In this document: positions 15,801-43,900 of the stretch, piece by piece
Numbering within the stretch: the stretch's first letter is position 1
How the letters are laid out: each line of letters begins with the position of its first letter
NCBI GenBank assembly: GCA_900617105.1
Contig: UYFQ01000683.1
Coordinates: 1-64,000 of the forward strand
Length of the DNA stretch: 64,000 nucleotides
Direction: 5' to 3'
DNA from: Hydrurus foetidus
Lineage: Eukaryota
The notes under the pieces: model-generated
The model's input: the letters and a program-made list of their open reading frames with translations, nothing else
What the model was told of the DNA's origin: nothing
The model's database searches: none
Translations under genes and position numbers: made by a program

Positions 15801-16703
15801 ATTGCCGTTAACAAACATAATGTCTATATACATTATTTGGTTCAAATCCTGAATATTACAGTGGTTGCTCATCTTCAACCTGTGCCTGATGGCTTGGCGT
15901 TTTGCCCTTTAGGGAGCCCAAGTCAGGACCCCAGATATCCAACGATCTAACTACGTCTTGTGCTGTAATGTTACTGTTAACTAGTTTACCTTGTCCTATC
16001 AGCTTAACTAACTGACCTGGACTAACGTAACCTAATTTCCTCTGATATTCTCTAGCTAACTCGGCCTGTTTGACCTGTCTAACTGTGTACTTTTTCTTCT
16101 TATCGTTCACAGTAGTAACTAACATTAACTTAGGTTTACTTACCATAGTACTCAAGTTGCATATATATATATTATATTTAATATCCCTATTGAAATAGTA
16201 ACAACATCCACCTTTTCTTATTTGCAAACTGTAAAAATCTCCCTTACAATTGTACTTCACTGAGTAACTATTATTTACCATGTTTGCAAAAGATAAAATG
16301 TTGGCTATACAGTTTGGGTCGTAGTAAACTATTCCGAAATCCGTCCTACCGCACTCTGTAATCGTTAACGGTTCTCCTCTAGAGTTTACTCCATTAACTA
16401 CCATAGGTGTGTGTGCAGGTACAATATCATAAAACAGTGTATCGGTTCTAAATACAGATTCACCAGCACAGGTATCAAGCAACAGCAAATCATCACCAAA
16501 CACGTCAGGATTGTCTGTGATATCTATGCTAGATATGTTACTAGCTACTGCTATGATATCCGTCTTTGAATCTTTGTCATCTATGTATTTTATTTGTACA
16601 TATTTAGATATACGTACGTTTTTATGATTATTATCCACAACATTAGTCACACTATTATTCACATTACTAGCTATGTGATCATGTAAAGAATCATATAAGT
16701 GAC
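12895..16703 (-). CDS. pol: Copia pol polyprotein (protease, integrase, reverse transcriptase, RNase H), interrupted by two single-base frameshifts (~15860, ~13689)
   Basis: Protease LLLDTCAGESVF; integrase YIDIMFVNG...RVDGEG...VVERKIRQIKERVR; RT KLKSRLVAGG, IDFPGAFLN, KLKKALYGCVES, IIHVDDMMI; RNase H YTDASYG, KSSTEAEL, FQDNKS, RHIDIRYFF, MLADMLTKPL. Confidence 0.95.
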
Positions 16704-18550: not shown

Positions 18551-21500
18551 ATGTCGGGATGCACGGTATGGGTTTCATGTGATATATTTCGCAGGGCAGA
18601 CATTCTTATCGGAGGTGCCCGAGAAGTGACCGCACCGGGTCAGAACATAAGAGAGGGTATAGAGCTTCTACTAAAAGGTAATCTCACAAATGATGGGGAC
18701 AATGCCGCATCCCGGACGGGTAGTGTGGACGCGTCAACCTTGCTCGCGAAAGGATTTACAATGTTGCGCAATAATCCTTACGAGGCTCTCGGACTGCAAG
18801 CGGGGGCGAAGACACAAGAAATACGGAAAGCATACAAAAAAGCAGCTTTACTCTATCACCCCGACAAAAATCCGAAGACGACACCACTGTTCCAAGCAAT
18901 TCAACTCGCGTGCGACAAGCTATCAGATAGAGAGGAGAGAGTAGAAGTAGAGAGAGAAGTTGAGAGACGCCAGCGAACGTCAGTGGCTCCTGTTGCATCC
19001 GTGAACAAGTCATATTCATACAAGCAAGATCCTCAGCAAAAGAAGCAAAATAAAGAGAAAACATCCAGCTCACAATCGCGACAGGAAGAGTCTACTCCTC
19101 AGTTCAAGAGGGACAATTTATATGAGCGTTACTATTCCGATGAGCCGAATGCAAGAGGCGGTGCAGGGAAATCCCAGGTGCCTTCGCAGCAAGATTATCG
19201 ACAACGTCATAACGAAGCCGTTGAGGAGGTGACGAAGAGGGCGAAGTATGCAGCCGAATCTGCTCGAAGATGCGAATACGAAATGAAGGCCAGAGATGCC
19301 GCTGAAAAAAGAGCATTTGAATTAAAATTTGTCGCCATGAGGGAGGCGGCAGCTCAGAAGCAGCGGGACAAGGACGGACTCGTGAAGGATGGACAGAAAC
19401 AATATTTCGATGAACAAGCAAAATTAAAATTGGAAAGGATTGCGAAAGAAAGAGCGGTTGCGGAAGCAGCCATGGCAAGTCGAAGAGCTATGTACAGCAA
19501 CATCACATCAACAACTCCTGACTCTAGTGTTCTACCGAGCAGTTACATGTACAGAAAGGCCTATCCTGAAGCAGCAAATCTCCGAGGGCTCAAGCTTGCG
19601 AGTCCACGTTCATCGAATGTTCCAGGGTTCAAAGCGCCCACTTCATCAGCAGGCGCGAAGGTGAATACAGCTGACGGAAGGCATAGCGATGCAGGAAGCA
19701 AGGATATACCTGTGACTGTGCCTGTAAAGGAATGTGAAGGTGTGAACGTACCGCAGACGAGCGGCAGTTGCAGTGCTTACAGCAAATCTCAAGCGACAAG
19801 AACCCGCAAGCACATCGTCTCCATCCCAGGTGACTTCAGTTGCGCAGCAGTCAGTGACTCAGCAGTGGAGCTGGAGTGGAAGAAATCCGTAGTTTCTAGT
19901 GTTCCTGTGCTCATTCAACTGAGCTGGCGGAAGCAATGCGCCCTTGCCCAGTGGCAGTCTGCAACAAGATTGATTAGTGGACAGAAATGTCGCAAGAACA
20001 ATCTTGACTTGGGTTCAGTGGGAGGGTCGCTCTATGAGTTCCGCGTAAGGGCCATCGAAGATCTGCCAGGAGGAATGCTTGGTACGATAATGCTTCGATT
20101 TAGTCGGTCATCTGCAGATAGAATTAAGTGAACCGTCTGTGCGCTGCTTCATTCCACTGCATATAAGACAACGGATCGTTATTACAGTGCTGAAATTGCT
20201 CACAATCGACTGCAATTGATACTTGTGTTATCACCTGACTCACAGTACACTATTTTCCTGAACACTTTTCAGGCGATCGCAGCGAATGGAGTAGCATCAT
20301 ACTCGTGGGCACCTTTAAGTCGAAACAGAGCAACACTGCCGCGTACGCTCCAGGACTGCCTATCAAAGAAAAAATGTCGAAAAAGTATGTTCCAACAAAG
20401 ATTGTTCCTCAGCCGCTGGTTCCTCCAGTTGTTCTCCCCACGCCCCAGCAGGTGTTCAAGAAGTCAGAACACCTCTCCTCTGCATGGTCCCCTGGGATCA
20501 CTCCTCTTCATGTCCCCGGTGTGGGCGTTCCAGTAGCAGCTGTCAACGGCAAGGGCTCCATTCCCGTTCCCCCGACCAACCCCCTTGTAGCTACACCCCC
20601 TTCCACTGCTTTGAATAGGTACCCCTCTTACATCCACAGAGAATCCAAACCCTCCACAGCAAGGGTTAACCTTGTAAGGGATCCAGTAGCCTCCAGAAGT
20701 GGTAGTATTTCGACTGGGGTGGCCAATAACTCTCAGGCAGCAGCCACTGTCATAGCAGCGCCGCAGCCTCCTGAAAGTGCTAAAGTCGAGACCAGTCCTG
20801 CGGCGGGTCTGTCTGGCCGGAGACAATCCGGCTTTCACCGTGAAGCAGTCGATCTCCATAAAGAGGATGTTGCACATGTTGTGGATGATATAACGATGGG
20901 GGTGAACATGGTGGAACTGAGTGATCAGGAGGACAGCGAAGACTTGATATCAGACGATGACGGCAGCAACAGCACCACCAGCAACAACAGCAATAGCAAT
21001 AGCAAGATCGCCGCGGTCAAATCTTTTAGAGAAAAGCGCCTCGCCCAACCCGTCACCCTCAGCCACAAATCAAGCGGGTCGTCCCCACTGCTGAATAATT
21101 CGTTCACCCGCACGGCTTGGGAGGGTATGTCGTCAGGGGCAGCTGTTAAGGGCCCTGGACTGGACATCACGCCAGCTGCACTCCCTAAACCCTCATTGCC
21201 TAAGAGAATGAAATTGAGGGAGAAAAAGAGGGAGAGCGCTTCTCTCTCTTCTGATGAAGAGTACAGCGAGGACATTGAGGAAGATGAAGAAAGTGTCATG
21301 AAGTCCATGTCGCAATCCTTTGCAGAAATAGAGCACACAGAAGCTGACGAATTCATCGAGGATGAAGAAGAAAAGGGAGGGAACTCTTTACCGGACGGCC
21401 CACGGCTAAAACCTCGAATGCACTCTGAGATCGAGATTTCTGCGGAGAAAAAGTCTCCGACACACAGAGTGCGGATTGCGAAGAAAGTATTGAGGAAAAA

Positions 21501-22346
21501 CAAGATCCGCATCATCAACACCAGTGCTCTACCTCCAGTGGAATCCAATCCGAACACACACATTGAGAGGCTGTGGTTTGAGCTGCGACCCCCTAAGGGA
21601 TCTGGAGAGTACGAACACCCTGTACGTGAAGAACCTTTAGCGGGTGCTAGTGTAAGGGGATTCCTGCTACCCGGTAAAAGCATTCTCGCCCAGGCGGTCG
21701 TTGGCACGTGGGCTAAAGTGCGATATCACAAAAAAGCGGGGAGAGGCACTGCAGGTCGATCGGAGGGTTGGGGCTGGTGTCCTCTTCAAGACAGCAAGTC
21801 GGGGCACACGTATCTAGTGAGATTTGAAATAGACGATGACGAGGTCAAAGATGAGGTGGGACTACCCGAACTTGCTCAGATGAAAGAAGACATCACAGAG
21901 AGTGTGCCCATCATCCTGGCTAACAAAAGGAAAGCAAATAACACCTCCTTCATGAATGCGAAAAGGACCCCTGCTGCCGTGAAGACGAATAGTCTGAATA
22001 AGATTGAGGAGTGGCATGAGCGGTATGACGATGATGGTGGGTACAGCTATTACTACAATGTGTGTTCCGGAGTCAGCAGCTGGGAGGCACCGGAATGGGT
22101 GCAGGAAGAAGACCTCGTCTCGAAGACCATGTGAGTCACTGACTGTCAGAATGAGTGACTTCGTGTGTGTGTGTGAACCCATCAACTATTATTTTGTTCT
22201 CATTGTTAGCGTTTACTAACGCTACTGTTCATTTCGCAAATACCAGATACTACATGCAGCTTAATGTATCCGATGGAACACCTCTAAAATCGACCTGGAC
22301 GAAGCCGTCTACGCACGCTAAGTTGATTCGGCGCGTGCAACCGTGA
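18551..22346 (+). CDS. J-domain (DnaJ) protein with fibronectin type III, SH3-like and tandem WW domains; introns 20082-20272 and 22131-22246; start uncertain
   Basis: NPYEALGL...IRKAYKKAALLYHPDKNP (HPD motif). FN3 VELEW...YEFRVRA|GDRSEWS is completed by splicing. PVREEP...GTWAKVRY...EGWGW is SH3b-like. WW domains EWHERYDDDGGYSYYYNVCSGVSSWEAP and WVQEEDLVSKTIYY...STWTKP. Confidence 0.85.
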
Positions 22347-25503: not shown

Positions 25504-26876
25504 CTATTGGAAAGCATCGCCACCTGCTTCCCATATGTCGATCTCCCCCTCGTTGCTGCCGGGCGAGCTTGAGAGGATTGTGTCGTCACCCTCCGATTTC
25601 GGATCTGCTATGATAGTGTCGATTGCTTTATTGCAAAGTCCACTTTTGACGTCGGCAAGATCCTGCTCACTGATGCAAAGCTCCGCAACCAAATCGTCAT
25701 CCAGTTCACTTTCGATGGTCACACCGTGGTACTCGGGAGGTGGCATCAAATCATCGTCATCATCATCTCTTGAATAGGAGGCTCTCTTCACCTGATTGAG
25801 TAAGTCGTCAGGCATCACACCATCGTCCATCATGACAGCGTTCAGCTCCTCCACTGCTTCAGCTAGAATTCTCTTCAAGCCTGTCAATCGGAAGGAAGTG
25901 CTCTGACTTTGAAGCAGCTGCTGCATCACTTCCACCTGCCGGATGAGAGTAAGAGCAGTTCTTTGAAAAATTGAAATTGAACAGTTTAAGTGCGTTTGAT
26001 GACCTGACTTACCTCAGTCGCTAGGAGATTGGCACATGCATGTGAAAAAGCTTTATGTCTGCTTGAGCCTCCATCTATTTCGAGAATCTTCTCCTTCAAG
26101 GCAAAGAGAGGTCTGCTGTCTCGGATCGCAGGAGAAAGCCCTATTGTTTCTGCACCATCCTCATCAGCATTCTGCAACTTCGCTATTCTAAGGTAGGTCT
26201 TCAGTTCGCAGTACACTTCTTTGCAGAGGTTTTCACACAGCGCAGAATCTCCCGCGATTTCGATGTCGTCAATAAGTTCGACTTCTGCTCGCAAGTAAGG
26301 TTTAGTGGCAAGAATTTTTCGAATCTTGAAACGTGAGTTGGCTTCGATAATAAAGAATCCTTTTCCGTCATCCATTTTCTTCTTCTCAAAAATGCTGCAG
26401 AAACTGCCGATAGATCCTATCGCTCCGCTGCCTGATATAAAGCACCGCCCTAGTCGGTTGCCGTTCTTCTCCGCATCATTCATCAAGCTCCGAAATCTCA
26501 TTTCATAAATATAGAGGAACTCACGTGCTCCAGGAAAAAGCGGTGATTCAAAAGGCATTATTGGGATATCAATTAACTCAATTTTACTTCTGCTTGACTG
26601 CGATGGCCTAATCAGCATATCGTCGGGGCCACTATCATTGTGGGACGATCCATCATCATTTAATACGTACTTGACTCCTCTCCCCCCGAACAGCTCCTCT
26701 AATGAAGGTAGTTCTCCTTTGGAGCTGGTACCACCTATTCCCGCCTCGTTGGATTCGTCTTTACTTAATTTCATTATAGGAGACATATTTCTTCTGCGCC
26801 ACGGGATTGATTTGAAGGAATCAATGGGATATTGCGTCAAGAGAAGGGTAGATAACATGGAAAAGATGACTTTCAT
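25504..26876 (-). CDS. LON protease N-terminal (substrate-binding) domain protein, probable plastid targeting; intron 25936-26012
   Basis: IPIMPFESPLFPGAREFLYIYEMRFRSLM, RFKIRKILATKPYLRAEVE and, after splicing, MQQLLQSQSTSFRL are LON_substr_bdg motifs. The signal peptide ends in IDS-F (ASAF-like). There is no AAA+ or protease domain. Confidence 0.85.
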
Positions 26877-27390
26877 GACAATCGGTGGAATGGTTATAAA
26901 CTGAAGTGATCCCACGAGCTGCAGATTCCCTCTGTCCTAGCAGTACTTTTTTATTGAGAGTACTACGTTACCACTAAACCGGCTCCACTTCATAGTGCGG
27001 TCATTAGACCCAGTGGATGTCAGTTGCTAGTGTAAATAGTGCTTCGAAGTAATTTGAGTGTAGCTGGATCTGACAACTCAGCACTCTTTCTAAACTCTAA
27101 ACTCAACTCACCAACTCGAACAATGTTGAAATTTCTTCCGTCATACGAATCGACGAATCGAAGATGACACGGCATACTATACCGTATCCTACCGTCTCTG
27201 CAGTTTATCCCGTACCATATCAGATGGCATTTGACAACTCTCTCACTCTCAAACTTCTGTCATTTCTCATCTGTCATTTGTCAGTAATCAGTAATCAGCA
27301 TCTCTACAGTGAAAGCGGAAATATTGATCACTATCATCAGAAAATTTGACAGTCAACCAGGCTGTTAGTATCATCGATTCTTAAATCAAG

Positions 27391-28689
27391 ATGTGGAAGG
27401 CCAGCAACGCTGTCGCTATCGATATAAGAGGAGCAAAGGGGTTGAATCAATCAACCATCAATGGTGTTTACGAGCCGACCGATGAGGTCTGCAGCGGCTG
27501 GCCAGTCTATCGAAAGCGAGGTGACGCCAACAAGTGGTTGGAATTCTTCATTGCATCCAATAAGGTATAATCCAACGCCATGTTTTCTCAATCTATTAAA
27601 ACTTTCCCAGCAGTCCACAGTGAAGACTCTTCAATCATTTGCACCTGATATAACACGATGCGATTGATGACAGTGGTACATTAAAGCGACCACTGACAAG
27701 GGGAAAGCGAAAGGCTGGATGCGCCTGTCTTGTGATCCTGTGACACGTCCTGAACTCTGCAAGTCTGTTTGTGAAGTATGGGACGGAAGCAAATGGACAT
27801 CTCAGCAATCTGTATCTATTGTAACTGCGAAACAGCGAAGGGAGGAGGATAAAAAAGCTGGTGCCGAAAGAAGGGCCCAATCAGTACCAGTAGATGTTCG
27901 AGGTGCATACGGTCCATCAGCTACTTCAATAAATGGAGTTTATGAACCAACGAGTGAAGTGTGTGGAGGTTGGCCAGTCTACAGGAAACAAGGAGATCCT
28001 GACAAATGGCTTGAATACATAGTAGCAACAAATGAGGTAAATATGATGCTCTGACTGCTCCTCTCGTGCGAACAGCTCGGAGTAATGCCGACTTCTTCTT
28101 ATTACCGCATACCTCTCTCAACTAACTGCCAAGAAATGCAAAATTTGTTGTCCAGTGGTATGTCAAACCGACAGCTGATAGAGGGAGAGCAGAAGGTTGG
28201 ATGTGCTTGGCTAGCGATCCACCGACTAGACCAGAATTGTCTAGAGGGACTTGCGAAGTCTGGGACGGAGACAGATGGACGATACAGACTTCAGTTACTG
28301 TACTGACTGCCGCTTGTGCGTTTGAGAGCATGTTAGACGTCCAGATATTTTGCGCTGAAGAATCAAAGGCACTTCAGGAGAAATTGAATGCGACTTTGAA
28401 AAGGGCGATTGGTATGTTGAGTACAGGCATCAATCAAGATCGAGTGGAAGAGGGAACGAAGCAGCTTGACTCTCTTCTGGAGGACTTGGAAGAACAGCTG
28501 AGACTGCTCAATCAAATGCAAATGGAGCAAGAAGAAGAAGCAACTGCAACGGCTAAAGTGTTGGAGAATTGCGCTGATAGCGATAAAACTCAAGAAATTG
28601 CAGTTGAGATTAATCTTGGATTTGCGGGAAGTAAAGATCGAGATCAACCGGAAGAAAAGAACAACATCAAATCGACAAGCTTTGAATAA
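27391..28689 (+). CDS. Protein with two tandem ~110-aa Trp/Gly-rich domains and a C-terminal coiled coil; introns 27565-27673 and 28037-28155
   Basis: The spliced frame gives two copies of D(I/V)RGA..INGVYEPT.EVC.GWPVYRK.GD..KWLE...|WY.K.T.D.G.A.GWM.L..DP.TRPEL....CEVWDG..WT.Q.SV. Confidence 0.85.
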
Positions 28690-29590
28690 CATTATTCCCA
28701 GTCCACTTAATGCGTGGAGTGACCTGCATGCGTGATCAACTTACTTTTCTGCACACATTAATCGGTGCCTTTCCACAGCACAGTAATCAAATCAAATTCA
28801 ACTGAGCCAAACTCTGTCAGCTCTTCGAGATAGCTAAAGCAGCGGTGAAGTCCATCGTATCGTATCCTAGCGTTTGTCGACACGTATCTCGTAGTAACAG
28901 TAATGCCGCAGTAACTGAGCTTCTTGCGAGCAGTTTAGTTTTAGGAACGTAGTACAACTGCCCCCGCCCACACACAGTCTAAAATTTGAGCAACGGCAAC
29001 GTACTGTACTGTTGCGTACAGCATGTACAGTAATCACCATCCAAAATCTACTCACACATAATGGCAGTTTGGATGACCATCATTTAGCTTCGCAACGTGA
29101 TAGGATACTATACTGTGACACCAACTAAACAGACAAATAAAAATAAGAAAGGTTTCGATGCGGCACATGCTGCTCGAGAACGTAACGTATGTACATCGTA
29201 TAACCGAACCGCTCCTCTCTAGGGCTCTGGATGGCCGCATGAAGCGCAAAGATACATAAATATGGAACGAGGGAAAAACAAGAGAAGAGGCAGAGCAGCG
29301 TCTAAAGAGAAGCCGCTGTCCGTACACCGTGTGGCTTCCATTGACCCCGATTCCATTCGCTTCAATTCCTTTGCTTCTCATCGCCTTGCTGTGGCTTCAA
29401 TCCACCGATCCATCGTCTACAGTCCCGAGCAGTAATTAATATGTAAAACAAAATCGACGATTTTGCGCGGACACCCCTATACCCATCCTCTAATTATGTA
29501 CTGAGGCTGAGGCGTTATGCAGCAGTGTGTGGAGGGGTGTGATAATGCTGATAAGTTGTTCTTGTTGCTGGTCACGTCACTAAGGGGGTG

Positions 29591-32500
29591 TCACCGATAC
29601 CCTCTGCCAGCTAGAGCCAGTACATGCGCTTCTGCACAGGTGGCCAATCCATCAGCTGCTTTGGAGACGTCATATCCTCCTTCCAGCACACTCACCACTC
29701 TCCCTCCGCACACCTCATCAGCAACCACTTGAATCCTCTCCGCCATCCAGTGGAAGTCTATTGGTTTAAGTCCTACTTGACCCCCTATAGGGTCAGTTGA
29801 TGCGCCATCAAATCCCGCACTGATGAATATTATATCCGGTTTAAACGCCTTTAAAGCTGGCATTATGATGTCTTCAAAGGAGATACGAAACCCACTCCTA
29901 CTCCTCGGTTTGCCTGATTTAAACAGAGGGTTCCCAGCTCTCACTGTGGGATATACGTTGACCAATACTCTGTTGGGATGTCTCTCATCTGCCCCTAAGA
30001 GACAGCAGCTAGACGAGGGAAAGAAGAAATCTTTGGGGCCATCGTACTGGAGATGCACTGACGAGTAGAAGGCGTGAGGGTCGCCTTCAAATATTTCCGC
30101 GGTGCCGTTTCCAAAGTGGGCATCAATATCCACCACTGCGAACCTTCTTAAGCCGTATTTGATACGCGCGTAATACGCACCTATCGCTACGTTATTCAAT
30201 AAGCAGAAACCGTTGTTAGAGCATCCTCTGGTACTACCAAAGCGACCCGCGTGATGACCAGGTGGGCGTATGCAGCAGAACACGTTCTTCACCCCATGCA
30301 CCTCTGTGACCGCAACAGCAGTATTCGCTGCTACGCTGCTGAGCATCTCCGGTGTGACCACCCCCAATGCGGCACCCGATGTTGAAGTTGAAGTTGCTGT
30401 GACCCCCACCTTGGATCTGGTGAGAGAGCCGGAGCTAGCTGCGATGGTGTTTGAAGGAAGAACTACTCCACAGCTGTCACTTTTGTTCTGCCCAATAGCA
30501 GCACTGACTTTCTCAGAGGTGCTTTTGTTATCATGACCAGCAGATGTAGATGTGGAGGCAGAGGTAAAGGCAGTGTCATCGATGTTCTGACTAAAAGTAG
30601 AGTCCATGTCAGCCGGCTCAACGATATGTGCTTGTGCTTGTGCTTGTTGCTGAAGTTGTAGTTGAAGTGTCGCACTCTCCTGTACTGCACAGATGCTCTC
30701 CTCTTCACGAGAGACAGAGACATTAATCCGGTTGAGGGTCCCGTCCATTTTGTCCGTGACTACCGCAGATACGGTAGGATCCTGCTCTTGAATAGCGTTA
30801 TTACACTCCTCCAAAAAGCCCGTCATGAGTTCGCTTATCTCTTCGACATCCATACTCTCTAGTGCACTTACCACGTCGCTCCTGAAAGACCCACCGACAC
30901 TAGTACTCACGGCGGACAAAGAGGGACGAGGGGAATCAGACTCTCCCCTCGCTGCGTCAGTGACAACCTCCGGATCCAGTGAAGGTCTCTGGGGAGAGTT
31001 GGAATTAGACGACGACAGACAAGATGCGACTCTTTCCTCTGCTGTCAAGCCAGCGCACTCCATCCCTTCAAGATCCGACCCAGCAAGCAAGTCACACCCC
31101 ACCACACAGCCCATAGTCACCGCATCCACTCCCGCACACACCACAGCAGCAGCAGCTATAGCCGCCTCGAAGGAACAGGGGGAAATGTACGTATCTGATG
31201 CACCCACATCCAGGTCCTCCCACCAACCAGGACCAGGGACCACACTGCCCTCCCCACAGTGACTTATGAACTTATCCCCAGAGATAAACCTTCCATTGAT
31301 GCGGTGGATTTCCCCAAAGGGATCGCCCTCTCCCTCGTCATCAAACGCTGAGTCAAGTGAGTGATTAGGTGTTTCCGAAGTAGGGTTATCTCGTCTTCTC
31401 TTCGACCTTGGGGGGAGGACTGCCACTCCTTTGGGAGGAATCGTGGGTCGACTTGTGAGGACGTCTATGCTGCTTTGTCTGATGTTGCTATCGCTATTGT
31501 CACTGCTACTACTTGTGCTAGTGCTACCACCTCTGCTAGTACAGCTGCTATGTCGGCTACTGCTACTAGCAGCACCTTCACCAACAGTATTGCTGATGCT
31601 CTGCTCAATTTCTGCAGAAGAGCCTTTGACAGATTTGGTTAGAGAATGTTCTACTGGATGATTGACGTCTCCCTCTACAGACATCAGATCAGTTATCGCT
31701 TGGTCTGATGCACTTGATGACGAATCTGCAGCAAATTGCACTGTGGTGCTATCTTGACTATACTCTACTACCGGGACTAATTCGCTGTCAAAGTGTGCAA
31801 TGGTCTCTAGCGGCTTGCCAGTATCATCGTTGACATCGTCCTCATCAGCTGCTTTATGACTGAGCTGATCCGATCTCTGTTCAGTCGCAGAAACCTCGCA
31901 GTCCATGGATGCGGTACCGTCCGATCCCGTCACATCCGGTTGAACTATACAGGGTGCATCGTAAATTGGGGGAATGTCCGAGTAATTATTCGCAAAATTG
32001 GGTGAACTTGATGCACTCGATGAGGTCTGTTCTTGTAGAGCTAGGTCATGGGATGTCCCGTGCGTCTCCCCCTCTGCAGGCAATGGCACATCATCAGGAA
32101 TGGGGCACACGGCAGCGCAGAGCTGTTTCGATGGATCTCTGTCTGACTCCTCAATTCCCAGTATCAACTTAGCGGCTATGTCACCCGGTAAGAAGGAAGG
32201 AGCATGAGATGAGATAGACATAGACATTGAAGAAGGCGGGGGGTCATCTGCAACGGCTGAATCGTCGAGATCCGCATTACCCTCGCTATCATCATCCAGA
32301 CCCGCCTCATCCCCTTCCCCTTCCCCTTCCTCCTCGTCCTCTTGGAGTTCCATCCCAGTTTCAGGTCCAAGTTCCGGTTCTAGGTCCGCTTCGAACTCGT
32401 TGTCTAGGTCATTGCGTGTGTCTAGTGCATTAGACTCGGAGACGCTTCTCCTCTTCCTGTGTCTCTCCTGTCCGACCCACACCTCATATTCAGGTCGGTT

Positions 32501-35500
32501 GAGAAGGAATTTAGTTAGTTGGCTCCGTAATGGTGCATTGCCCCCTGACACTCTACACTGCCTGAGAGTGTTCCAAACAGACACGTGTCCCTTCTTTAGA
32601 GGCTTGTTCGGCTTCCCAGTCAGGGGATTTAGGGACTTTTTGAAGGCCTTCGCCCTTCTGCCCCTTTTGGCAGGGACATATCCTGGGACTGGGACTGGTA
32701 CTTGGACTGGGATATTTAAGATAGTGACGTCACTGTTGGTGTGGCTGTGTAGATTGCCAGACAGCGCAGCTGCATCAAGAGCAGTGGATTCTGTGGATCT
32801 TGGATTAGAGGCTGGTACCGTGAGAGGGTTGGGAATCACAGTCAACTCAATGGCAGTGGCGGTGGAGGTAACGTCTACATTGGTGCTGACCGTAAGGTCC
32901 CCTTGGATACTGGCATCGACACTCCCGTCTACTGCTGCAGCAGCTGTTTGCGCTGGTGACATGATGTTCTGTTCGATCTCCCTCTCTTTGATATTTCCGA
33001 CGAGCAGTGCAGCCTTCCCCTTCGTCTTGCTACCCCTGGAGACGGAGACTCTCTTCACACTGGATACGTCACTACTATCACTGTCTGACTCTTCGTTTCT
33101 GCTACGCTCCATCCTCAGCATTTCCTCTTGATTGATGTAGACATCTCTGTCCGGATTCTCAGCGATAAAAGTGGTTAAGTCGCATCGCATTGGCGCCTCC
33201 TCTCCCTCGACCTTCAGCAGTCGCACGTTATCCCACATGCAGATACGCTCTGAGGCGTAACTCAGCTGAGGCGCATCATCACCAGCAATAGAAAGCGCCA
33301 ATATTCTCGTCAACTCGTCATCATCATTGTAGTGCAGATCTTGACCTGTATAGATTTCGTACTCTGGTCTAGTGGCTAGGAATTTTAAAAGCATGGACCG
33401 TATAGGCGCATTGCGACCTGATAGACAGCTCTTCCTCCTTGAGTTCCACAGGGGAATGGGACTGGCCATGGAAGACTCGAGTGTCTGTGCTGGCGTCTTC
33501 CCCACCTCCTTCTCCTTCTTCTTGGACATAGCGGAGACAGCGAGAGAGAGAGCCTTCAAGGGCTTGAGAGGGACGCCCAGATTACCGCACACAAGATGCA
33601 GCTTAGCAGCAATGCAGGGGGCTAACTTCTCTACTTTGCACTCAACTGCAACAGCGTCTACCAGGTCGGGTGGTGCCGGAGTGGCTGAAGCTACCGTGAG
33701 TTCCGGCTGTTTCGTCTCGTCTGCTGCAGGTGATGGATAAATACTGCTTATGCCCCTCACTGCGCTGCTGCCTCGACCTCGCCCTCGTCCGCCTCTCCCT
33801 CTTCCCCTGCCTCTTCCAGACTTCAAAGCGTCCCTCTCTGACTTCATCATCCTGGGAACGAGGGGCTCTTGGCCGTCATACACGCAATATTCCGGCCGGT
33901 TTAAGAGGTATTCCTGCAGATCTTTACGGTAAGGCGCGTTGCCTCCTGCTACTCTACACTGCTTGACTTTGTTCCACAAAGACACTCTGCCCTCTTCCTC
34001 TCCCTCCTCCCCTTCAACAGCATCCTTGCGACTCTCCTCTTCTTCCCTCTCATACTCCTCCGACACTCTCACTCTCGCCCTGTCACCCACTCTGCGCGGC
34101 GTAGGGAGGAAGACAGAAGCTTCGAAATGTTTCTTCTCTTTCTCTTTCTTCACACGCACAGGCACTGTGACGCCTTTCATGAGCTCATCCTTTTCTAGAA
34201 TGAGCTTGTCCATCTTATCTGCTATCTCCACTCTATCATGCTTCTCCAACTTATCTTTCTCAGGAGCTGCAGTGCCGATAGATACGCACCTCAAACTGTC
34301 TCGAGACAGAGCGGAGAATCGAGATTTCTGAGACTCAGCGGTTGTGCGTGGCTTGACTAGCTTACTAGAGCTGGATATCTTCTTCACAATCTTAGCCTTG
34401 GAAGCGACTCTTCTCCTGTCCCCATCCACATCTGCCCCTGCTACCCTCTGTCCTGTCCAGATGACATACTCAGGCTTCTCGTCTAGGAAGGCTTTTAAGT
34501 CTTTCTTCATGGGTGCGTTACCACCTGATACTCTGACCTTACGCACTGTGTTCCATACGGAGATGCGCCTGAATGCTGAGAATGCTCCTAGATTGATCTT
34601 GTGCTTCACTTCTGGTTCGCCATCTGCACTGTCGTGTGCTGATGCATCCATGGCAGCATAGTGGCTTACACTGCTCCTCTTTGGCACACCGTGCACCGGT
34701 AGAATGTTCTTGCCCTTGACTTGGCTAGCGCTTTTGGCGGGACGACCTAACAACTTCAACGAGCCGTCTCTGAACTTAGAGCAAACTGCACCAGATGGCA
34801 GGTCGTCCATGGCTTTACGCCTTTTAACCCCTCCAGTGCCGGATCGGTCCCTCTCCTCCTCGTACCCACCATGATAGTCCATCGCAGACTTGTCCATCCT
34901 ATCATTGCATGCGGAGGATGTGTAGATATCCGCTGCACCAGATGGCTGCACGGCTTGTCTGAGCCACTGGACAATGTCCCACTGAATAGGAGGGGTTTCC
35001 TCCTTGTCGTCCTGACCGGTGTACACCAAGAAGTGGGAGTTACGCGATAGGCATTCGCGAAGGTTCTTGAAAAAAGGTGCAGCATATCCACCCACTCTGC
35101 GGCATCTCATGGTGTCCCACATCCACACCCTGTCGGACCCGTTAGGAGAAAAGTCCCTGGGCCATTCTTCTTCTCGGAATGCGAGCAGTGCATCAGCCAC
35201 ATTCTGGGGAATGGAGAGGGGATTGGAGGATGTGGAGAAAACTCTCTGTCTCACTTTACTGTAAAGACCTGCATCGCTTTCATCTTCGTAGCCGTTACTA
35301 GCACTCAGAATGCCTGAGGAGGAGGTCGAAGTGCAACCTCCTGCTCTCACACTGGATCGGGCATTTCTCCTCATCATCGCAATGGGCAAGGGTTCACCAC
35401 TCTCCTCTGCTGCCGCCCTGATGTCCGCTTCATCTACTGGGATGTCTTCATTGAGCTCTGATGAGAACTGCACGTCAGCCTCTGTCTCCCCTGTCATAGC

Positions 35501-37388
35501 GTGGTCCTTCATGGGCAGATAGGGAGGGTTATGCAGACTGGCAGCTTTGGCTCTTTGTCTGAGATGGTCGATGTACTCGTCAGCATGCACGAGAGCCACT
35601 GACTCCCAGAAGCAGTCTTGCAGAGCGATGCTGCTGTCTCTCGCAAGGCATCTTATGTCCAGCTTGTTGGACCCTTCTCTCGGTGCGGTGCATCTTTCTC
35701 TCTCGTACATTTCTCCCTCAGCCCTTAAGGACGACTCCTCCGTCACACTCTCATCGAAACTGTTGCGATGGGTGGGAAGATCAGAACTCTCGGATACTGA
35801 TCCTTGCTTGATGTCGAAGGTGCCGTTGACAGCTGAAAGGCATTCCACCTTGCTCACACCAGAGTCGTTACACGTGTCCTCATTCAGGCATAGCGTATCT
35901 CCTATCACCTTCTCCACATCTTCTGTATTCCCCTTACACCTCTTGGAGAGTGCGAGTTGGAGTGACGTCAGCTTTGCCATTATTTTCACTATCCGGATGC
36001 TGCGCTCTGGCATTTTACGCGGAACTAAATGAGATAAATTCCTAGGATCGCACAGAACAACAGTCACTGACTTTTTGATGACTGGCTGGTCGTCACTCAG
36101 GCCATCAGTAGTGATGAATATGCCACTCAGAGCGTTGCCTTCTACTTTTCTGCAGATGTCTTCTATTACAGACTCCACACTTTCTGGCAGCATTCCATTT
36201 ATCCCTATCTCCCCCTCCACATCACTCTCCAGCTTACTCTGCACTGCGAGAGGCACGACTGCATCATCATATATATCGCGGATATTAAACAGTTTCTCAA
36301 ACTGATCTGTCCTACTTTTCGCTGCTAATCTCTCAAATTCCGATTTCTTCGATGCAATCTTACACCCCGCGTGAGTGGATGCGTACTTGAACAACAAGTG
36401 GCTGGACAAACGCATGCCCTCATAGAGAAGGCGTGAAAATATCAAACTCTCCTTGGGAGTTCTGACTGCTGATGGGGAGAGCAAGAGTGGCGTATTGGCC
36501 TTGGCATTTTCCACCCAGTGGGTCAGCTTGCTCATGAGGTTGGCAGTGTCACTGCTAGTGTGAGTAGCGGTGGCAGACGTTCTGGCCTTGCCCTCGCTGC
36601 CCTCATGCAGTCTCGCAGCCTTTGCCTTATTGTCACTGTCTCTGTCTGCAGTGGAACCTGTGAGTGCAGAGATGTACGCCTTGAACTTTATGAGCAGGGC
36701 TTTGTCCCTCTCCGCCACTGTGAGCATCTCACGGCAGCGCTTGGACTCCTTTGTGGCCAGCTGTATCCTCGCCTTCTCTGTTAGGCGGGCTAGCTTAGAA
36801 GCCTCTTGGTGCTCTGCGAAAGTCTTCTTGGCATTAGAGATTTCGTCTCTGATGCGCTTGAGTTTCTCAGAGAGTTCCCTTTCCTCCACCTCCATGTTAC
36901 CGATGAAGGCGCGTGACTCCACTTGCTCCTGTTCTCTAGAGTTCTCAGAGACCTGATGCTTTGCCTGAAGGAACCCGACCCTCTGGGATAGAGCGCCTCC
37001 CTCTCCGGTGAAGCGCTTTATCCTCCTCACCTCCATGGCACCCTTGACACGCACCGTATCAAAAATTTGTGCGATTTGACTTGTTGTTCTCACTTTTGCA
37101 TCTACCACTCCTAGGATGGAACAGAGGAGCTCTCTTCCTGAGTTGCACCTGCTACTACTACTGACATGGTTGTTGTTGTTGTGGATAACTTGCTCTCTTG
37201 CATCGTGTTCACTCTCTTCACCGTCATTCTGAACTGCTCCCGTTGTCATACGACATTTACTATCCCTGTCTCTGTCCCCGTCCCTTCCTCCTTGTGTTTC
37301 GCTGCTAATACTACCAGAGCGACTTAGACCATCGACATTCCTCTCAAAATACGTAGAAGAGAGAGCAGATGATGAAAATGAAAAAGAG

Positions 37389-37426
<38 letters not shown>

Positions 37427-39908
37427 AGAGGTAGGGAACATGTCATGTGCAGCGACTTGAACACCGCACTTCGGGATATCTTCTGGGCTTGTGATTGATC
37501 CCAAGGCAAAGTCGTCACTGATCGTCTGCTGAGCGTTTCTAGCTCGAAGCACTTCAATCTGTTCAAACGAATATAACAGAGATGAGTAGAAGCGAATAAG
37601 GAGCTTATCACACTGTAAAAGGTGAAACAAATCGTGGTGGACACATTTCAAGTACGCACCTCATATGGTAATAGAACTTGAATAATTCCTGGTTTGAGTT
37701 GTGAAGACAGAGACGTCCCATACGTTCTCCCTCCAGTACTTCCAGCTCGTAGGAGTTTTTCCTCTATGCCCATTAGCAGATCGCTTTTCATTTGGTTTAT
37801 TTGTTTGCTATTATCTCTGTACTCTTCGCTGTTACCGCGACCCAACTTGTGTGTGAGTTGTGAAAAACCTGGACCTGAGGATGAGGCAGAGGAAAAGGTA
37901 GTGCTGCCGCGTTTCATCAATTGCAGCCAGCTCTCCATGCGCACTCTCTGAGTAGCAGCTGTCTCCACATCATCATTTCCGATGACGTCGCCCTCTGGAA
38001 ATGCCTTGATGAAAGCTAGCATCTTGGATCCCAAGAGATGTCTCCCTGGAACATCTGCCATGGAACAGTCCTTGGACTCCCCCCTCCCGAGACGTTTCAC
38101 AATGTCCTTCTTATCCACACGGGACACCTTCGCACCAACAGCAGCAGCACTGTCACAATCCATATCTGTGTGGGATGCTGACAATCTTATGACGTCATCT
38201 TCATCCTCTATACACACACCAACTGTTTCATCCATTGCTGAGTTGCTCTCCGTATCTAGACTGTCAGATCGCGCCAGAAGTCGAGCACTCAACAGTGGCT
38301 GACTTTTGATCATTAGAGATCCAAGGTCCGCTCCATTCTCGGAATCTGACGTGTCTACGGTCTTAGGTGCACTGGTTGCGAGAGCTGCAATCTTCCGCAC
38401 TAGTGGGTGTTGAAAAGTATACTTCCGCTTCGTTCTGATTTTATCTATTTGAGTCACAACCTCTTGCACTGCTCTATCACACATCTCTACAGTTGAAGCT
38501 GTGTTTTCATTGACCTGAATGAGAACATCACCTTTTACGGTGCGATCTCCGTTATTGTGTAAGTCTGACACGTGTAAGCCCTCAGGGAAAAAAATCGGCA
38601 CTGCCTCCACTTTCTGTGCAACTTTCTTCTTTTCTTCCTTGACTTTTGGTTTTGCCTTCACCTTCTGTTTTTGATCTTTATCAGTGCATAAATCTGTCTG
38701 AGCCACACGCTGAATATTCCCAGTTCCCAACCCAGACAAAGACAAAGACAAAGACGCATATCCAGAGGCTGCACCAGAAACAGTCCCAGACCCACTTTCA
38801 GTTTGATGTGCCTGAATACAAGAAGTATCTATAAGCTGCCTAGAGTCGGTGCTGATATACTGTCTTGTAGAGGAAGCGCAATTTAATGTTGAGTTTGCCG
38901 AAACCGCACTCGCCATAGACTGTTCTGTAACTTCTTCAACAGATTTTGTTCCTTTTAACAGTTTCACTGATGAACTGGGCTCGCTCGTGCTGGTAGACCG
39001 GGGGATAAATCTAAATAGACCTTGAGCTTGCTTAAGCGACTCTAACGCCATTTTTTTCTTTACGCCATCAGCTGATCGCTCAGTGATTTCGTAGTTTAAT
39101 TCCTGAGGAGAGTAGTTATGTATTTGGTTTGGATCTGTCAGGACCACCTTCACAAGTGGCTTATCTCCCTTCCTCCTAGGTTTCCTCACTTTGATTACAA
39201 TAGGAACAACTGACGGAGGAGAAAATAATGAAGCACTTCCTGTAGCTGTGGAAGCCAGAACAGCTATTTCTTTCGCTGATGATAAACAGTGTGGCTCTGT
39301 GACAGTCATCGGAATGGGAGTCGCCTCAACTTCTAGAATACCAGCACTCTCAGCTGTGCACACTATTTTCTCGGCAACATGATGCAATAAGCTATTATGA
39401 ATGCACTGATCTACGGTCGCCTCACAAGATGCATCAGTGGTGGAATTTTTCCAGGGAGCTACAATACCCTCGGCATCCATGCTGTAACAGATCAACAATA
39501 GAAATTCAGCGATTTACAGGCACGTTTTTTCGTAGAAGTCAACACTATTGCTCTGATAGTCACCTCAGTTCTGGCGCAGCAATGACAATGTCGCAATGAA
39601 TTCCGGCTGTTGTCAGACCTGCACCTTTTAATGGCATCTGTTGCAAATGAATTTTTACTTCAGATGCGACTCATTGAAGCAGTTTCGGTAATGATCGTTT
39701 AAAAAATAATCTAAAATACCTCTGTAAAAGCTGCAGTAGCAACAAATAAATAACTTTTCCCGTTGTTCTCGTCTGAATACATGTCGGCAGATTTGTCATC
39801 GTTTGATGCGATTTGTGAGTCCGTAATCATCGGCGTTGCACAGGGGAGCGCGCTCGCCTCACCTGGAGTGCCCTCTATGATGTTAGAAGAGTCACTCCGG
39901 TACGACAT
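29591..39908 (-). CDS. Giant histone deacetylase-family protein (class II-like Zn-dependent) with six BRK-like repeats; intron 37559-37659; 5' exons uncertain
   Basis: C-terminal IRPPGHHAG, GFCLLNNVAIGA, DIDAHFGNGT, SAGFDG and VLEGGY. Upstream HDAC pieces are SHLVPRKMPERSIRI, VALVHADEYIDHL and DTYISPCSFEAA. ORFs of 616 and 2686 aa join in phase 0 (GAG|gtgcgt...aacag|ATT). Confidence 0.88.
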
Positions 39909-40928
39909 CTGCTAAATAAAGTGGTTGAATTTGATGCCCCCAGAGAAGAGTATCGGAGAGTACTCCTTAGACAGTAAAGCACCTTCAGCTATTACAGAAA
40001 CAGAATCGCGCGTAATCCCAGAAGCAGCAGGCAGCAGATAACCAGCCACTGCTCAGTCGTGGTTGGACAGGTTGGGCTGCAAAAGATTTGGATTGGGACT
40101 CATCCACATCAGCTCTGAGCTATTTTTGAAAACTGCAGCAATCTATGACTGAAGAGAGAGAGACGCTCAAACAATTCCAACTCGATTTTGTAGGAAGCGG
40201 TTAAATTTCTTGATTCATCGAAAAAACGGTATTAGTAAAGGTCAGGAGGTCAGCTTGTGTGCCCTTTGTCAACTTCAAGTCACACAATTATGAATTAGGA
40301 CGGTGTAGGGTATCAAGCAAGAGGGATACACAAATACCGGCACTGTTTCAAATACCAGGACTGGAGTTAACTATTTTAAAATGCTGTAGTCGTTGACAGC
40401 GCAAAGCTGTCACAAATGCATTTGAATAGAGGCATTCACGTTGTGATCTCCACTCACCAATTGCTAAGAGTACGTCGTATTGTAGGAGACCCTCGCCCGT
40501 GATTTTCTCCGCTAATTCTTTGTGAACTGTACAGATTTTTGAGGTGGCAGGCAATAGTTTCAATGATATTTCTCCCCTGAACAGTAACAAAATCAGGAAT
40601 ACTTTTGCCATACTTGTGCCCGATATCGATGTGATCTCTGGCCATGCATTTAACAAAATATGACATCTTAAATGTTATGCATGAGCGTCCCTCTCGGAAT
40701 CAGCACTTACTTGTAACCCCTGTCTGGCTGGTCTTTCACCTTCAACATTTCCCCTAAATTTTACAGCACCTACCGTTCTGCGTCTAAATTTAGACGGAAC
40801 CCCCCTCCCTCATTCATCCATCGGTCACAGGTTTGCGTTGACATGAATAAGCTCAGAGCTTTGAGCTGCATCCTGCATCGTAACAAAATGTGCACTATCG
40901 TCAAAGAACTTTGAGGTAGCGTGGATGA

Positions 40929-43900
40929 ATGGGTAATGCGCCGCTGATTGACGATCACAACTGCGGTGGTGGAGAGCCTAAAGATCCGATAAATAAACCT
41001 GTTAAGATAAAATCATGTAGAGTCTTGGAAGCGACATTGGATGAAAAAGTAGACCCGAAAACCAAATCGAAATCTGCTCAACAAGGTGGCTCGTATTCTG
41101 AAAATACATCGAGAAAGCTGTCTGTTACAGACGAATCTCCTCTTGTGGTAATAGAGCGTGATGCTCCCACAGAACAGAAACGCGGGTCGAACGCGTACTA
41201 TCGTATTCAACTCCCAGGGAATGGAATGTCCGATCAGGAGTGCAAAACCGTTTGGAGTTCTGAGGTTAATGAATGTCATTTGATTAAAGATAGTGTAGCG
41301 TCAAATCTCCATGGTAATGACCTATTTGAACCTGAGAAGGAAAATCAGATTCATGTGACATCGTCTGGATCATATGATGACGCAGGTGCTAGCGTAACAG
41401 AAACCATTACGGATAATGATGAGGATGATAAAGAACTGCAGCCTTTAGAAATTTTGTTGCAATTCATCCCCTATTACGGCCAAGGGGATCCTTCAAATGA
41501 TGCTATTGTTAGATCAACATTGTCTGGCATGTCCGTAGAGGATATTGATTCACAGGATGAGTATGGAAACACTTTGCTACTGCTGGCATGTCAGCATCGT
41601 TGTGAAGACTTAGCAAGAATCATGCTGAATAAGGGAGCAAATCCAAGCGCACTGAACTCTGCTGGGGCATGTTGTCTGCATTTCGCGTGCTACAAGGAGT
41701 CGCAGTCCATGAGTATCGCAAAGGTGCTTCTCCAGAATGGTGCTGATCCTGAGGTCATAGAATCCACATATGGGTGCACACCTCTGCACTACTGCGGGGG
41801 AAGTGGGAATATTGGACTGTGCAAAATGTTGATCGCCCATGGGGCTCAAATCAACTCCACTGACTTCTACAGCTACACTTGTGTTGACTATGCGAGGGAA
41901 GCTAAGATGCACGAAGCTGTTATTTACTTACAGCAGCGACTTGATCAGTACGTTATGCAAAACTCCTACAGACTAGGCAGCGGGTGCGGCAACTATGGAG
42001 GCAATGGGAATGGAGCATACTACCCCTCACATCACTTTCCACCCTTCCATTCGAATGATTGGAACGAAGAAATCGATCCTGTCAGCGGAGAGAGATATTT
42101 CACTAATTTCCGTACTGGTGAGAGTTTGTGGGAGAACGATTTCAATTCTCGTATCGCAGCTGTTGGACTGAATAGTAATGGACCATTGGGTCATTTGGGG
42201 GGTGTAACTGGTACGGGCCAAAGCCAGTCACCTCAAAAAGATCCCAATAACACAAGCGTGAGTCAAATGGAGACAGGCAGACGTAACAGCATAGGCATAG
42301 GTGCAGCGAATATGCCACCATTAGTGAGAAAGCTGTCCACACTGTCAGCCAATCCCTTCATCTCCCCCGAGAGGGGGTTTGAGATAGAGGCATGCAGAAT
42401 CCGTGTGGAGTCGATACTAACACGTCACGCTCCAGTGAGATTGAAAGAATTGGAATCGATGATGATCGACCACCAAGGGAAGGAGTCTGAGTTGCTGCAA
42501 GGTCTGTGCAAAGAGTATGCACTTAGCAGTGAGGAGGAGGTAGCAGCGTACAGATCAGCTCTCAAAATACTTCAAATAGACCTCACTGGTAGAAGGAAAT
42601 CAATACGACTCAACATGGCCAGTGCAACTCCGTATCACAGCACCATGTCTGCTCGTCCTGGGACTGCTCTTAGGAAACATCCAGTGTCTTCAGTGCCTCC
42701 ATCTCCACTAGCAGGTAGCATGTTAGGGGGATTCAGTGCCACTGCCACCCCTCCTGTCCCTGTTTCAGGGAGTACCATGGATCAGTCGGTTGTGATGCTG
42801 ATGATAGGGGAGGCGAGAGCTGCACATGAAGCACAGGCAATGCAGATGATGGCTGATGCGAGGTGGCAATCTCTTGTTTCTGCCTGGTCTCGTCTCATTT
42901 TCCATCTGTGCGCATTGGTGTTAGCGTCAATTACTGGTACTTGTGTGCATATCGTGTTGTGTTGTGTTGTGTTGTGTTGTGTCGAGTCATAGTTGCACCT
43001 GCGAGTCAATGTGCCAATAGCTTTACCACTATACCGCTGGGCTCATACATCTGTTAGAATCGGAACACTAATTCAATTGAATTCTTGTCAGGACAACGCA
43101 TGAAGCTCTCTTGGAGAGTGAGAGAAAAGCATTCCGATGCGCTATTAGCGAAAGTGAAGGAGTTGTGGTGAAGCTACAGTCAGAATATGATGGCGTTCTA
43201 AACCGTATAAAGGCTTTGGAGGTGCGTCAATGATCATCTTGCTTGATGTATCTTTGCTATCTAATTGCCTCTTCTTTCGCAGTAACACTCTCCCACTTAA
43301 GTCTTAACCACGTCTTAGTAATCCATATCATAGCAAACTCCTCAATTTGTATATGACGCATGTGTAGGAAGAGAAAGAGAAGCTACAAGAGAAATTGCAA
43401 CGCACTCTTTCTCACGGTGGAGAAGCCATATCGAAAGTAGAAGAGGCAATCGAGAAGAAAGACGAACAGAACGCTGCTCTGAAAATTGAATTATCGTCAG
43501 CCAGAGAAGAGCTTGCTTACAAGAAGGAAAGGCAGAGGGGCACGGAATTGATCATCGCCGATTTGAACGCTGGACAAGCAGACATACTCGCAAGGTCGGT
43601 GTTGTATGGTATAGCATAGTATAGTATAACATGAGAATGAGTGGAAGAAATGTAATGTAGACAACAGTATTGTACAGTATTGTTTAGTATAGTATCGCGT
43701 TAGTATTGTACAGTATAGTATCGCGTTAGTATTGTACAGTATAGTATCGCGTTAGTCTATGTAGCATAGTATAGTATAGCATAGCATAAAGAAGAGTAGA
43801 AGAATAGTACTGCGTGTAAACACACAAGCCGCACGAGTCAGCTTCAAGTGCAGTCAGTCATTCTTGTTTGTGTTATGTTCCATGCGTTACGGATACCAGT

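Follow-up and report, generated by a model that had tools for sequence, protein, structure and literature searches.

The window analyzed here is a stretch of 64,000 nucleotides from Hydrurus foetidus (contig UYFQ01000683.1, assembly GCA_900617105.1), and its minus strand carries an open frame of 8061 nt (29591–37651, 2686 codons; P0001) in which pieces of a zinc deacetylase domain alternate with long inserts, the largest of which holds six BRK domains. Residue numbers below follow the P0001 translation, and all features of this gene are on the minus strand. We consider it probable that the product is a class-II-type zinc lysine deacetylase that is interrupted three times in frame, with pieces that are predicted to refold and with BRK modules that likely act as peptide-binding tethers.

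The gene is longer than this frame. Its coding part begins in exon 1 (39564–39637), where the first in-frame ATG of the spliced frame, at 39637, is the presumed start codon, and it continues after an 82-nt GT..AG intron (intron 1, 39482–39563) into exon 2 (37660–39481), which contributes about 607 residues. The joint of intron 1, 39481->39564, is spanned by 2+2 raw RNA reads (runs X8/X9) and by one metatranscriptome contig (X1). Exon 2 uses P0002, a 616-codon frame directly upstream (37648–39498), and is without a recognizable domain: against Pfam, P0002 gives nothing above any cut-off (best E 0.2), BLASTP against the collected family proteins gives no relatives of it, and a scan of metagenome contigs in which 48 patterns matched yielded zero relatives. 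Intron 2 (37559–37659; 101 nt, GT..AG, phase 0) was predicted from the sequence to join “...LLPYE” of P0002 in phase to “IEVLRARNAQQ...” at residue I32 of P0001, and the predicted joint, 37558->37660 with 101 nt skipped, was then met in one contig each of the metatranscriptome runs X2 and X3. Exon 3 (29591–37558; 7968 nt) contains all of the deacetylase pieces and all of the BRK modules and ends in the stop codon at 29591–29593. The spliced frame comprises 3287 codons from the ATG at 39637, for a protein of about 3290 residues. The original prediction had confined the finding to 29591–36070; its contents stand, but the gene does not start within that interval, as two introns and exons lie further upstream.

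Two stranded oligo-dT RNA runs (X8/X9), whose species label matches that of the DNA runs containing the stretch, cover the locus without a break from 28868 to about 40150, in the orientation expected of a minus-strand gene and at a depth of 1–11; by this cover the transcript extends to about 40100–40150 and exon 3 is continuous. No splice joint inside exon 3 (29591–37558) is listed in either run, whereas nearby real introns measure 82–101 nt, and the depth over the inserts (4–6) resembles that over the core (6–9). Because of these two observations, the inserts belong to the main transcript, and the motifs and repeats, which had been foreseen to share a single unspliced 8-kb exon, do so. Since the frame is also open throughout and Pfam finds no intein or protease motif in P0001, we regard it as very improbable that processing of the RNA or the protein takes out the inserts, either entirely or only in certain isoforms, to leave a contiguous working enzyme and the BRK array as a separate product. 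The depth of just 1–11 reads, at which rare or minor spliced isoforms could escape, speaks for such removal, as does a public gene call, P0011, that covers only the last 611 residues of the gene. This 611-aa call is 100% identical over the queried core region and begins with M where the window frame has V, which suggests an internal start chosen by the ORF caller. ORF-based gene calls thus fragment this gene, and such architectures are easily overlooked in annotation.

Two further features of the transcript were noted. A TCT/TCC trinucleotide repeat at 37368–37439 encodes a run of about 20 Ser residues; the DNA contigs of run X4 break there, RNA reads are cut there, and the copy number of the repeat may be uncertain or variable. 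In exon 1, a second 82-nt skip with AT..AT ends (39635–39718) occurs in one X1 metatranscriptome contig of a relative; it is absent from the same-species reads and may be an artifact or a difference of the relative.

The C-terminal part of P0001 corresponds, by similarity, to the deacetylase core (29606–30295, residues 2453–2682). Pfam PF00850 (Hist_deacetyl) matches residues 2437–2673 with 173.8 bits (cut-off 27.9), reaching only profile positions 81–295 of 298. Sequences of 70 solved deacetylases match the core, the best being HDAC6 with both of its domains (1.1e-50); the further matches include a Burkholderia deacetylase-superfamily protein (5ji5, 1e-30), Arabidopsis HDA15, HDAC4/7, HDAH, and HDAC10. 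The motifs RPPGHHAG (residues 2462–2469, window 30245–30268), DIDAH (residues 2508–2512), SAGFDG (residues 2611–2616), and EGGYD (residues 2657–2661) are all present. Residues H2466, H2467, D2508, D2510, H2512, D2615, and Y2660 align to HDAC6, and each is the same in 10 of 10 family members. Following the HDAC8 and HDAC6 literature, we take these to include the His-His dyad (H2466-H2467), the Asp/His/Asp zinc ligands (D2510, H2512, and D2615), and the catalytic Tyr (Y2660), the residues that the original prediction had described as retained. Because the active site is intact with its catalytic Tyr, activity on acetyl-lysine is assumed for the putative enzyme. Pfam detects neither PF02148 (ZnF-UBP) nor a second catalytic domain in P0001.

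Three pieces upstream of the core appear to supply the part of the domain that the Pfam match does not reach. The first (seg1; 35921–36073, residues 527–577) corresponds to the first strand, the H...PER loop, and the first helix and contains the motif SHLVPRKMPERSIRI (residues 540–554, window 35990–36034). The second (seg2; 35504–35650, residues 668–716) corresponds to the second strand together with the VHADEYIDHL helix and contains the motif VALVHADEYIDHL (residues 685–697, window 35561–35599); in 10 of 10 sequences, H689 and Y693 of this piece are unchanged. The third (seg3; 31094–31240, residues 2138–2186), with the motif DTYISPCSFEAAIAAA (residues 2153–2168, window 31148–31195), corresponds to the rim Asp (DTY) and the long helix that precedes the RPPGHHA strand. 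All three were placed with both hhalign and hmmsearch. The motifs were expected in their normal order but far apart, with a gap of about 1450 residues; they lie in this order in one frame, and the second and third are 1455 residues apart.

A canonical profile built from 15 ordinary deacetylases of 309–359 aa was run unfiltered over P0001 with hmmsearch and returned exactly four envelopes, all in profile order: residues 530–575 on profile positions 3–48 (−1.1 bits), residues 683–703 on positions 53–73 (−3.6 bits), residues 2152–2181 on positions 81–110 (11.0 bits), and residues 2441–2681 on positions 99–307 (215.4 bits). With hhalign and an alignment of 8 orthologous sequences, seg1 aligns to canonical positions 3–35 (E 0.016), seg2 to positions 52–72 (E 0.0093), and seg3 to positions 82–113 (E 9e-8, probability 94%), and five other regions of P0001 that served as off-target controls give 0.18–0.78. 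A wider comparison set 16–17 family sequences, with distant members added, against 21 canonical ones, with 30 column-shuffled controls for each piece. Here seg1 aligns to canonical positions 2–36 with E 2.1e-6 and probability 89% (best shuffle 0.032), and seg2 to positions 51–75 with E 0.001 (best shuffle 0.052); the seg3 value is inflated in this wider alignment by the contiguous deacetylases it contains, and the 8-sequence value of 9e-8 is used instead. In relatives with a short insert before the core (P0020, P0009, and P0043), the Pfam match itself runs from profile position 62–66 through seg3 into the core. By these profile comparisons, the four pieces are collinear with a canonical deacetylase domain, and the N-terminal segments do align to deacetylase profiles, with hhalign E values of 2.1e-6, 1e-3, and 9e-8 as compared with at least 0.03 in the shuffled controls.

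The pieces are separated by three inserts. Insert A (35651–35920, residues 578–667) separates the first helix from the second strand and is a variable, acidic and Ser-rich stretch of 90 residues. Insert B, 1421 residues between the VHADEYIDHL helix and the DTY motif, carries the six BRK modules; its site is presumably the L2 loop of HDAC8 nomenclature, which flanks the entrance to the active site, and we take the Asp of DTY to be the rim aspartate. Insert C (30296–31093, residues 2187–2452) connects the long helix of seg3 to the RPPGHHA strand with 266 poorly conserved, Ser/Ala/Thr-rich residues, and has a counterpart of only about 20 residues in P0020. Upstream of seg1, residues 181–330 (36662–37111) form a conserved region (conservation 0.72–0.90) that is helical and probably a coiled coil; the counterpart in P0020 is modeled as one long helix (119–282) with low to moderate confidence. 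Basic patches occur at 943 (KRRK), 1732 (RKRR), and 2084 (KRRR). Between the third and fourth BRK modules, an Arg-Gly repeat (RGRGRGRGG RGRGRG; 33770–33814, residues 1280–1294) resembles an RGG box. RGG boxes in other proteins serve in RNA binding or are sites of arginine methylation.

The six repeats of insert B, each about 45 residues long, are BRK domains. Their conserved Trp residues are at 845, 1033, 1226, 1402, 1473, and 1693, corresponding to window positions of about 35137, 34573, 33994, 33466, 33253, and 32593; all are in one minus-strand frame, where the original prediction had placed six BRK-like repeats (~35130 to 32590). Across the six aligned repeats a Trp, a Gly, an Ala-Pro pair, a Leu, and a Gln are invariant. 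Pfam PF07533 (BRK) scores 85.4 bits over the whole of P0001 against a cut-off of 23. Scored alone, module 2 (34445–34582, residues 1024–1069) reaches 26.6 bits, module 3 (33839–34003, residues 1217–1271) 24.9 bits, and module 6 (32450–32602, residues 1684–1734) 27.8 bits. Module 4 (33338–33478, residues 1392–1438; 18.9 bits) and module 5 (33104–33262, residues 1464–1516; 21.3 bits) were delimited with a profile of the window's own repeats, and module 1 (34994–35146, residues 836–886), the most divergent, with that profile and the alignment. When the profile of the six window repeats was compared with the PDB, BRK domains of CHD7 and CHD8 were the five best of 12 matches (E 7.4e-5 to 0.045), and that of BRG1 followed with E 0.54.

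The BRK assignment was independently supported by structure prediction for repeat 6, the only one of the six that was modeled. The AlphaFold model of this repeat, made from a 19-row alignment, has a pLDDT of 81.6 and a beta-beta-alpha-beta order, with strands at 10–12, 17–19, and 40–42 and a helix at 27–36. The top six of its 53 Foldseek matches are the six BRK entries that the PDB contains (probability 0.98–1.00, TM 0.57–0.68, rmsd 1.0–2.4 over 38–43 columns, E 0.009–0.27), and the seventh has a probability of 0.23. Because the domain is small, these E values are weak; no Foldseek match to this model reaches E <= 0.001, and the ranking rather than the E value carries the argument. VIA-align, which is independent of Foldseek, places the same six BRK entries on top among 48,161 chains, with Z of 6.7–4.2 and 3.4 for the next. 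The invariant Gly, the Ala-Pro pair, and a Pro after the helix, present in all six repeats, match G625, A633/P634, and P647 of BRG1, groove residues that are proposed as a peptide-binding site in the paper on the BRG1 BRK domain (PMC7096718). Beside the BRK modules, Pfam finds only Hist_deacetyl in P0001, and no SNF2-type ATPase.

Relatives share this order of parts. Six orthologues of 2504–2594 residues are 55–57% identical to P0001 overall and have both Pfam families, as does one 1850-residue relative that is 33% identical overall; the eighth match of the orthologue search is an Amoebophrya ankyrin-deacetylase without BRK. Identity is concentrated in islands of >=0.9, namely seg1, seg2 with a C-terminal extension, each BRK repeat, the 60 residues up to and including seg3, and the core, and falls to 0.24–0.6, with gaps, between them. 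Such a pattern is that of putatively folded pieces linked by presumably disordered linkers. With our own profiles, the order seg1-seg2-BRK(n)-seg3-core was found in P0001 and P0003–P0008 (n=6), P0009 (n=2), and P0139 (n=1). P0133 has eight BRK domains followed by seg3 and core, with seg1 and seg2 undetected; the fragments P0131 and P0148 show seg1-seg2-BRK, and the fragments P0134, P0138, P0158, and P0161 show seg1-insert-seg2. In a quick tree of 41 cores, rooted at the midpoint, the split proteins group together in a single clade (9 rows, SH-aLRT 99); neighboring clades include an Ochromonadaceae protein, and oomycete, bacterial-type, and HDAC6 cores are further off. The unusual architecture proposed at the outset, a deacetylase with an array inserted into a loop of its catalytic fold, is supported by this recurrence.

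How the pieces might come together was examined on P0020, a natural relative of 1173 aa with the same split and a core that is 63% identical (seg1 396–434, seg2 470–518, seg3 876–923, core 938–1168). Its large insert has zero BRK domains and instead two W-x-C-x2-C...C-x2-C motifs of RanBP2-type zinc fingers at residues of about 640–760; in P0019, a close relative of P0020, Pfam Zn_ribbon_RanBP scores 16.8 bits, below its cut-off. At this one site, then, family members hold 0, 1, 2, 6, or 8 BRK copies. An AlphaFold model of P0020 made from 10 sequences gives core blocks with pLDDT of 60–90 and a strand-helix, strand-helix pattern in seg1 and seg2. From model residue 396–398 to 1173, it superposes on complete deacetylase structures with Z of 28–30: 302 residues align to chain residues 2–336 of 8szt_C (Z 29.9, rmsd 3.1), and 297 of 305 residues to chain residues 2–306 of 5ji5. 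Because the part from seg3 to the C terminus accounts for only about 230 of the roughly 300 aligned residues, seg1 and seg2 would occupy the N-terminal positions of the fold in this relative, a placement that we make with low confidence.

Besides the low RNA depth, several observations weigh against an interrupted but complete deacetylase domain that carries a BRK array. The hmmsearch scores of seg1 and seg2 are negative, and neither is significant alone; Pfam, searched with seg1+seg2 and with seg3 alone at E up to 10, returns no family; and the hhalign probability of seg2 is just 21% at its E of 0.001. The usual H-P-E of the first loop is M-P-E here. The P0020 model has a mean pLDDT of only 43.3, with about 52–64 in seg1 and seg2, so that its placement of these pieces is of low confidence and applies to a relative. 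Among the BRK modules, the first has no Pfam hit and the fourth and fifth stay below the cut-off of 23 when scored alone. Intron 2 was found only in metatranscriptome contigs of a close relative and is absent from the same-species raw reads (X8/X9), whose depth there is about 0.5–1.9.

The weakness of seg1 and seg2 in Pfam and HMMER, the marginal score of seg2, and the low model confidence would all be expected if the C-terminal domain were a truncated or remodeled deacetylase, acting as a scaffold, as a pseudo-enzyme, or with a fold completed in some other way, and if the upstream pieces resembled a deacetylase by chance. Relatives that begin at seg3 (P0096), and others without detected seg1 or seg2 (P0043 and P0040), point in the same direction. 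Chance likeness is nevertheless hard to reconcile with the E value of seg1, which beats the best of 30 shuffles by about four orders of magnitude, or with the collinearity of every match with the profile, and few islands of the protein are as well conserved as seg1 and seg2. The P0020 model aligns to nearly all of 5ji5 from model residue 398 onward, and all of the catalytic residues are intact. On balance we judge a truncated domain to be improbable and retain the split but complete domain as the preferred description.

If the domain is split but complete, the four pieces would reassemble into one active zinc deacetylase domain, an assembly that we infer for this protein. Insert B would leave and re-enter the fold at a point flanked by the second helix and the DTY rim aspartate, beside the active-site mouth, and since it sits in the loop at this mouth, the BRK array would loop out and its modules would hang next to the substrate entrance. 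There the modules could act as a multivalent tether that binds short peptide motifs of chromatin proteins or of partner complexes and holds the enzyme on its targets; the KRRK and KRRR patches may be nuclear import signals, and the N-terminal coiled coil may pair with itself or with a partner. The reader or scaffold role of the array can only be inferred, because what BRK domains do is itself stated to be unknown, even in animals, in PMC7096718; this also weighs against the tether proposal.

The substrate of such an enzyme need not be a histone. The architecture could be as described while the enzyme deacylates targets other than histones, either proteins or small amides (polyamines, for instance), and is recruited by the BRK array to a partner outside chromatin. 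Among contiguous proteins, the core is closest to “histone deacetylase family” members of bacterial type, about 309 aa long and 44–47% identical (oomycete proteins are 41–44% identical), the solved relatives include the polyamine deacetylase HDAC10, an acetylpolyamine amidohydrolase, and amide hydrolases, and HDAC6, the best solved match, is described as mainly cytoplasmic in the literature. We nonetheless rate a non-histone substrate as unlikely: in PMC7096718 and PMC9113485, the BRK domains described are all in chromatin remodelers or nuclear regulators, other BRK proteins that we found carry Myb/SANT, zf-CW, or Tudor-like domains, and the window protein itself has the KRRK/KRRR patches and the Arg-Gly repeat.

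A broader proposal, which we put forward as no better than a possibility that we would not expect to hold as a whole, is that in one deacetylase clade of stramenopiles the loop at the active-site mouth now serves as a socket that takes interchangeable reader cassettes, in different lineages either one to eight BRK domains or zinc fingers, while the enzyme remains unbroken. The BRK array would bind histone or partner motifs beside the tunnel and so choose or gate the substrate. If so, this would be the first system in which the function of a BRK domain could be read out through the activity of an attached enzyme.

The BRK domains of this clade belong to a much larger set. With residues 520–1719 as the query, 199 proteins were found at E <= 0.001 among 1.84 billion cluster representatives. 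The Pfam scan took in 115 representatives and left out the 32 lowest-ranked of the 150 listed (P0246–P0277); BRK was found in 102 of the 115, mostly in proteins or fragments of 200–600 residues with 2–4 copies and nothing else (up to 117 bits). A deacetylase domain accompanies BRK in two of the scanned representatives, P0133 and P0243, and BRK is combined in one case each with five Myb/SANT repeats (P0159), zf-CW (P0183), and a U-box (P0214). By these profile matches, BRK domains are abundant outside animals and far from animal-specific.

The surroundings of the gene were also surveyed. On the plus strand, a neighboring gene at 28000–28870 is expressed about five times more strongly than the deacetylase gene (depth 14–31), has a 119-nt GT..AG intron (28035–28153; 23 and 19 reads), and has its transcript end near the 3′ end of the deacetylase gene. 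Upstream, the next gene lies on the opposite strand at 40929–42992 (+); it encodes ankyrin repeats and gives a weak WW match (19.6 bits, below cut-off). Other neighbors encode DnaJ (18551–20131), a WW domain just below cut-off (20305–22134), and a LON substrate-binding domain (25986–26915). About 12 kb from the deacetylase gene, overlapping frames at 12895–17936 (−) with copia-type RVT_2 (65.4 bits) and a CCHC zinc knuckle (20.4 bits; cut-off 20.8) form a Ty1/copia-like retroelement.

Both building blocks are well known, and it is their arrangement that appears to be undescribed in print. In the titles and abstracts listed, with subscription journals and preprint supplements outside reach, we found no papers that join BRK domains with deacetylases beyond reviews of the animal CHD/BRG1 remodelers, none on BRK domains in diatoms, and nothing relevant on large insertions in protist deacetylases. 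Two candidates for stramenopile BRK literature were set aside, one on CHD remodelers and the other on Brinker, which is unrelated.

In terms of the catalytic domain, the window protein shares the PF00850 core, the dyad, the zinc site, and the Tyr with class IIb and bacterial-type zinc deacetylases, that is HDAC6 (about 34% identical to the window core), HDAC10, the HDAH enzymes of Bordetella and Pseudomonas, and the Burkholderia protein 5ji5. In those enzymes the domain is a contiguous unit of about 300 residues, whereas in the window protein it is broken by 90, 1421, and 266 residues. HDAC6 has its catalytic domain twice in tandem and a ZnF-UBP at the C terminus; the window protein is not HDAC6 proper, because it has a single domain and no ZnF-UBP. 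Class IIa deacetylases (HDAC4/5/7/9), whose cores match the window core with E of about 5e-25, have a short zinc-binding element near the active-site entrance that serves protein-protein contacts, and in them a His replaces the catalytic Tyr. The window protein is not of class IIa, because this Tyr is kept (Y2660 in EGGYD), and in place of a short zinc-binding loop its insert is an array of independent domains of about 1400 residues.

In terms of the inserted modules, the BRK domains of CHD7, CHD8, CHD9/Kismet, and BRG1/BRM (2v0e, 2v0f, 2cka, 2ckc, 2dl6, and 6sy2) are the same beta-beta-alpha-beta module of 40–45 residues with the same Gly, Ala-Pro, and Pro. Unlike these, the window modules have an invariant Trp in the first strand (W-N/D), and they are present as six copies inside the fold of another enzyme, without an ATPase. 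If the pieces reassemble, the protein would offer a new context for the BRK domains of BRG1 and CHD7/8, proteins that are linked to cancer and developmental disease, and would show that inserts four to five times as large as the deacetylase fold itself can be accommodated by it, in a natural domain insertion with the potential to link catalysis to the binding of partners. Oomycete class II deacetylases, as described in PMC5112689, join their catalytic domain to ANK, PHD, AP2, and Med27 modules that flank it, and neither insertions nor BRK domains are described there; the BRK modules of the window protein are inside. Accessory modules of chromatin enzymes are normally found before or after the catalytic domain, whereas here an array appears to be threaded through one of its surface loops.

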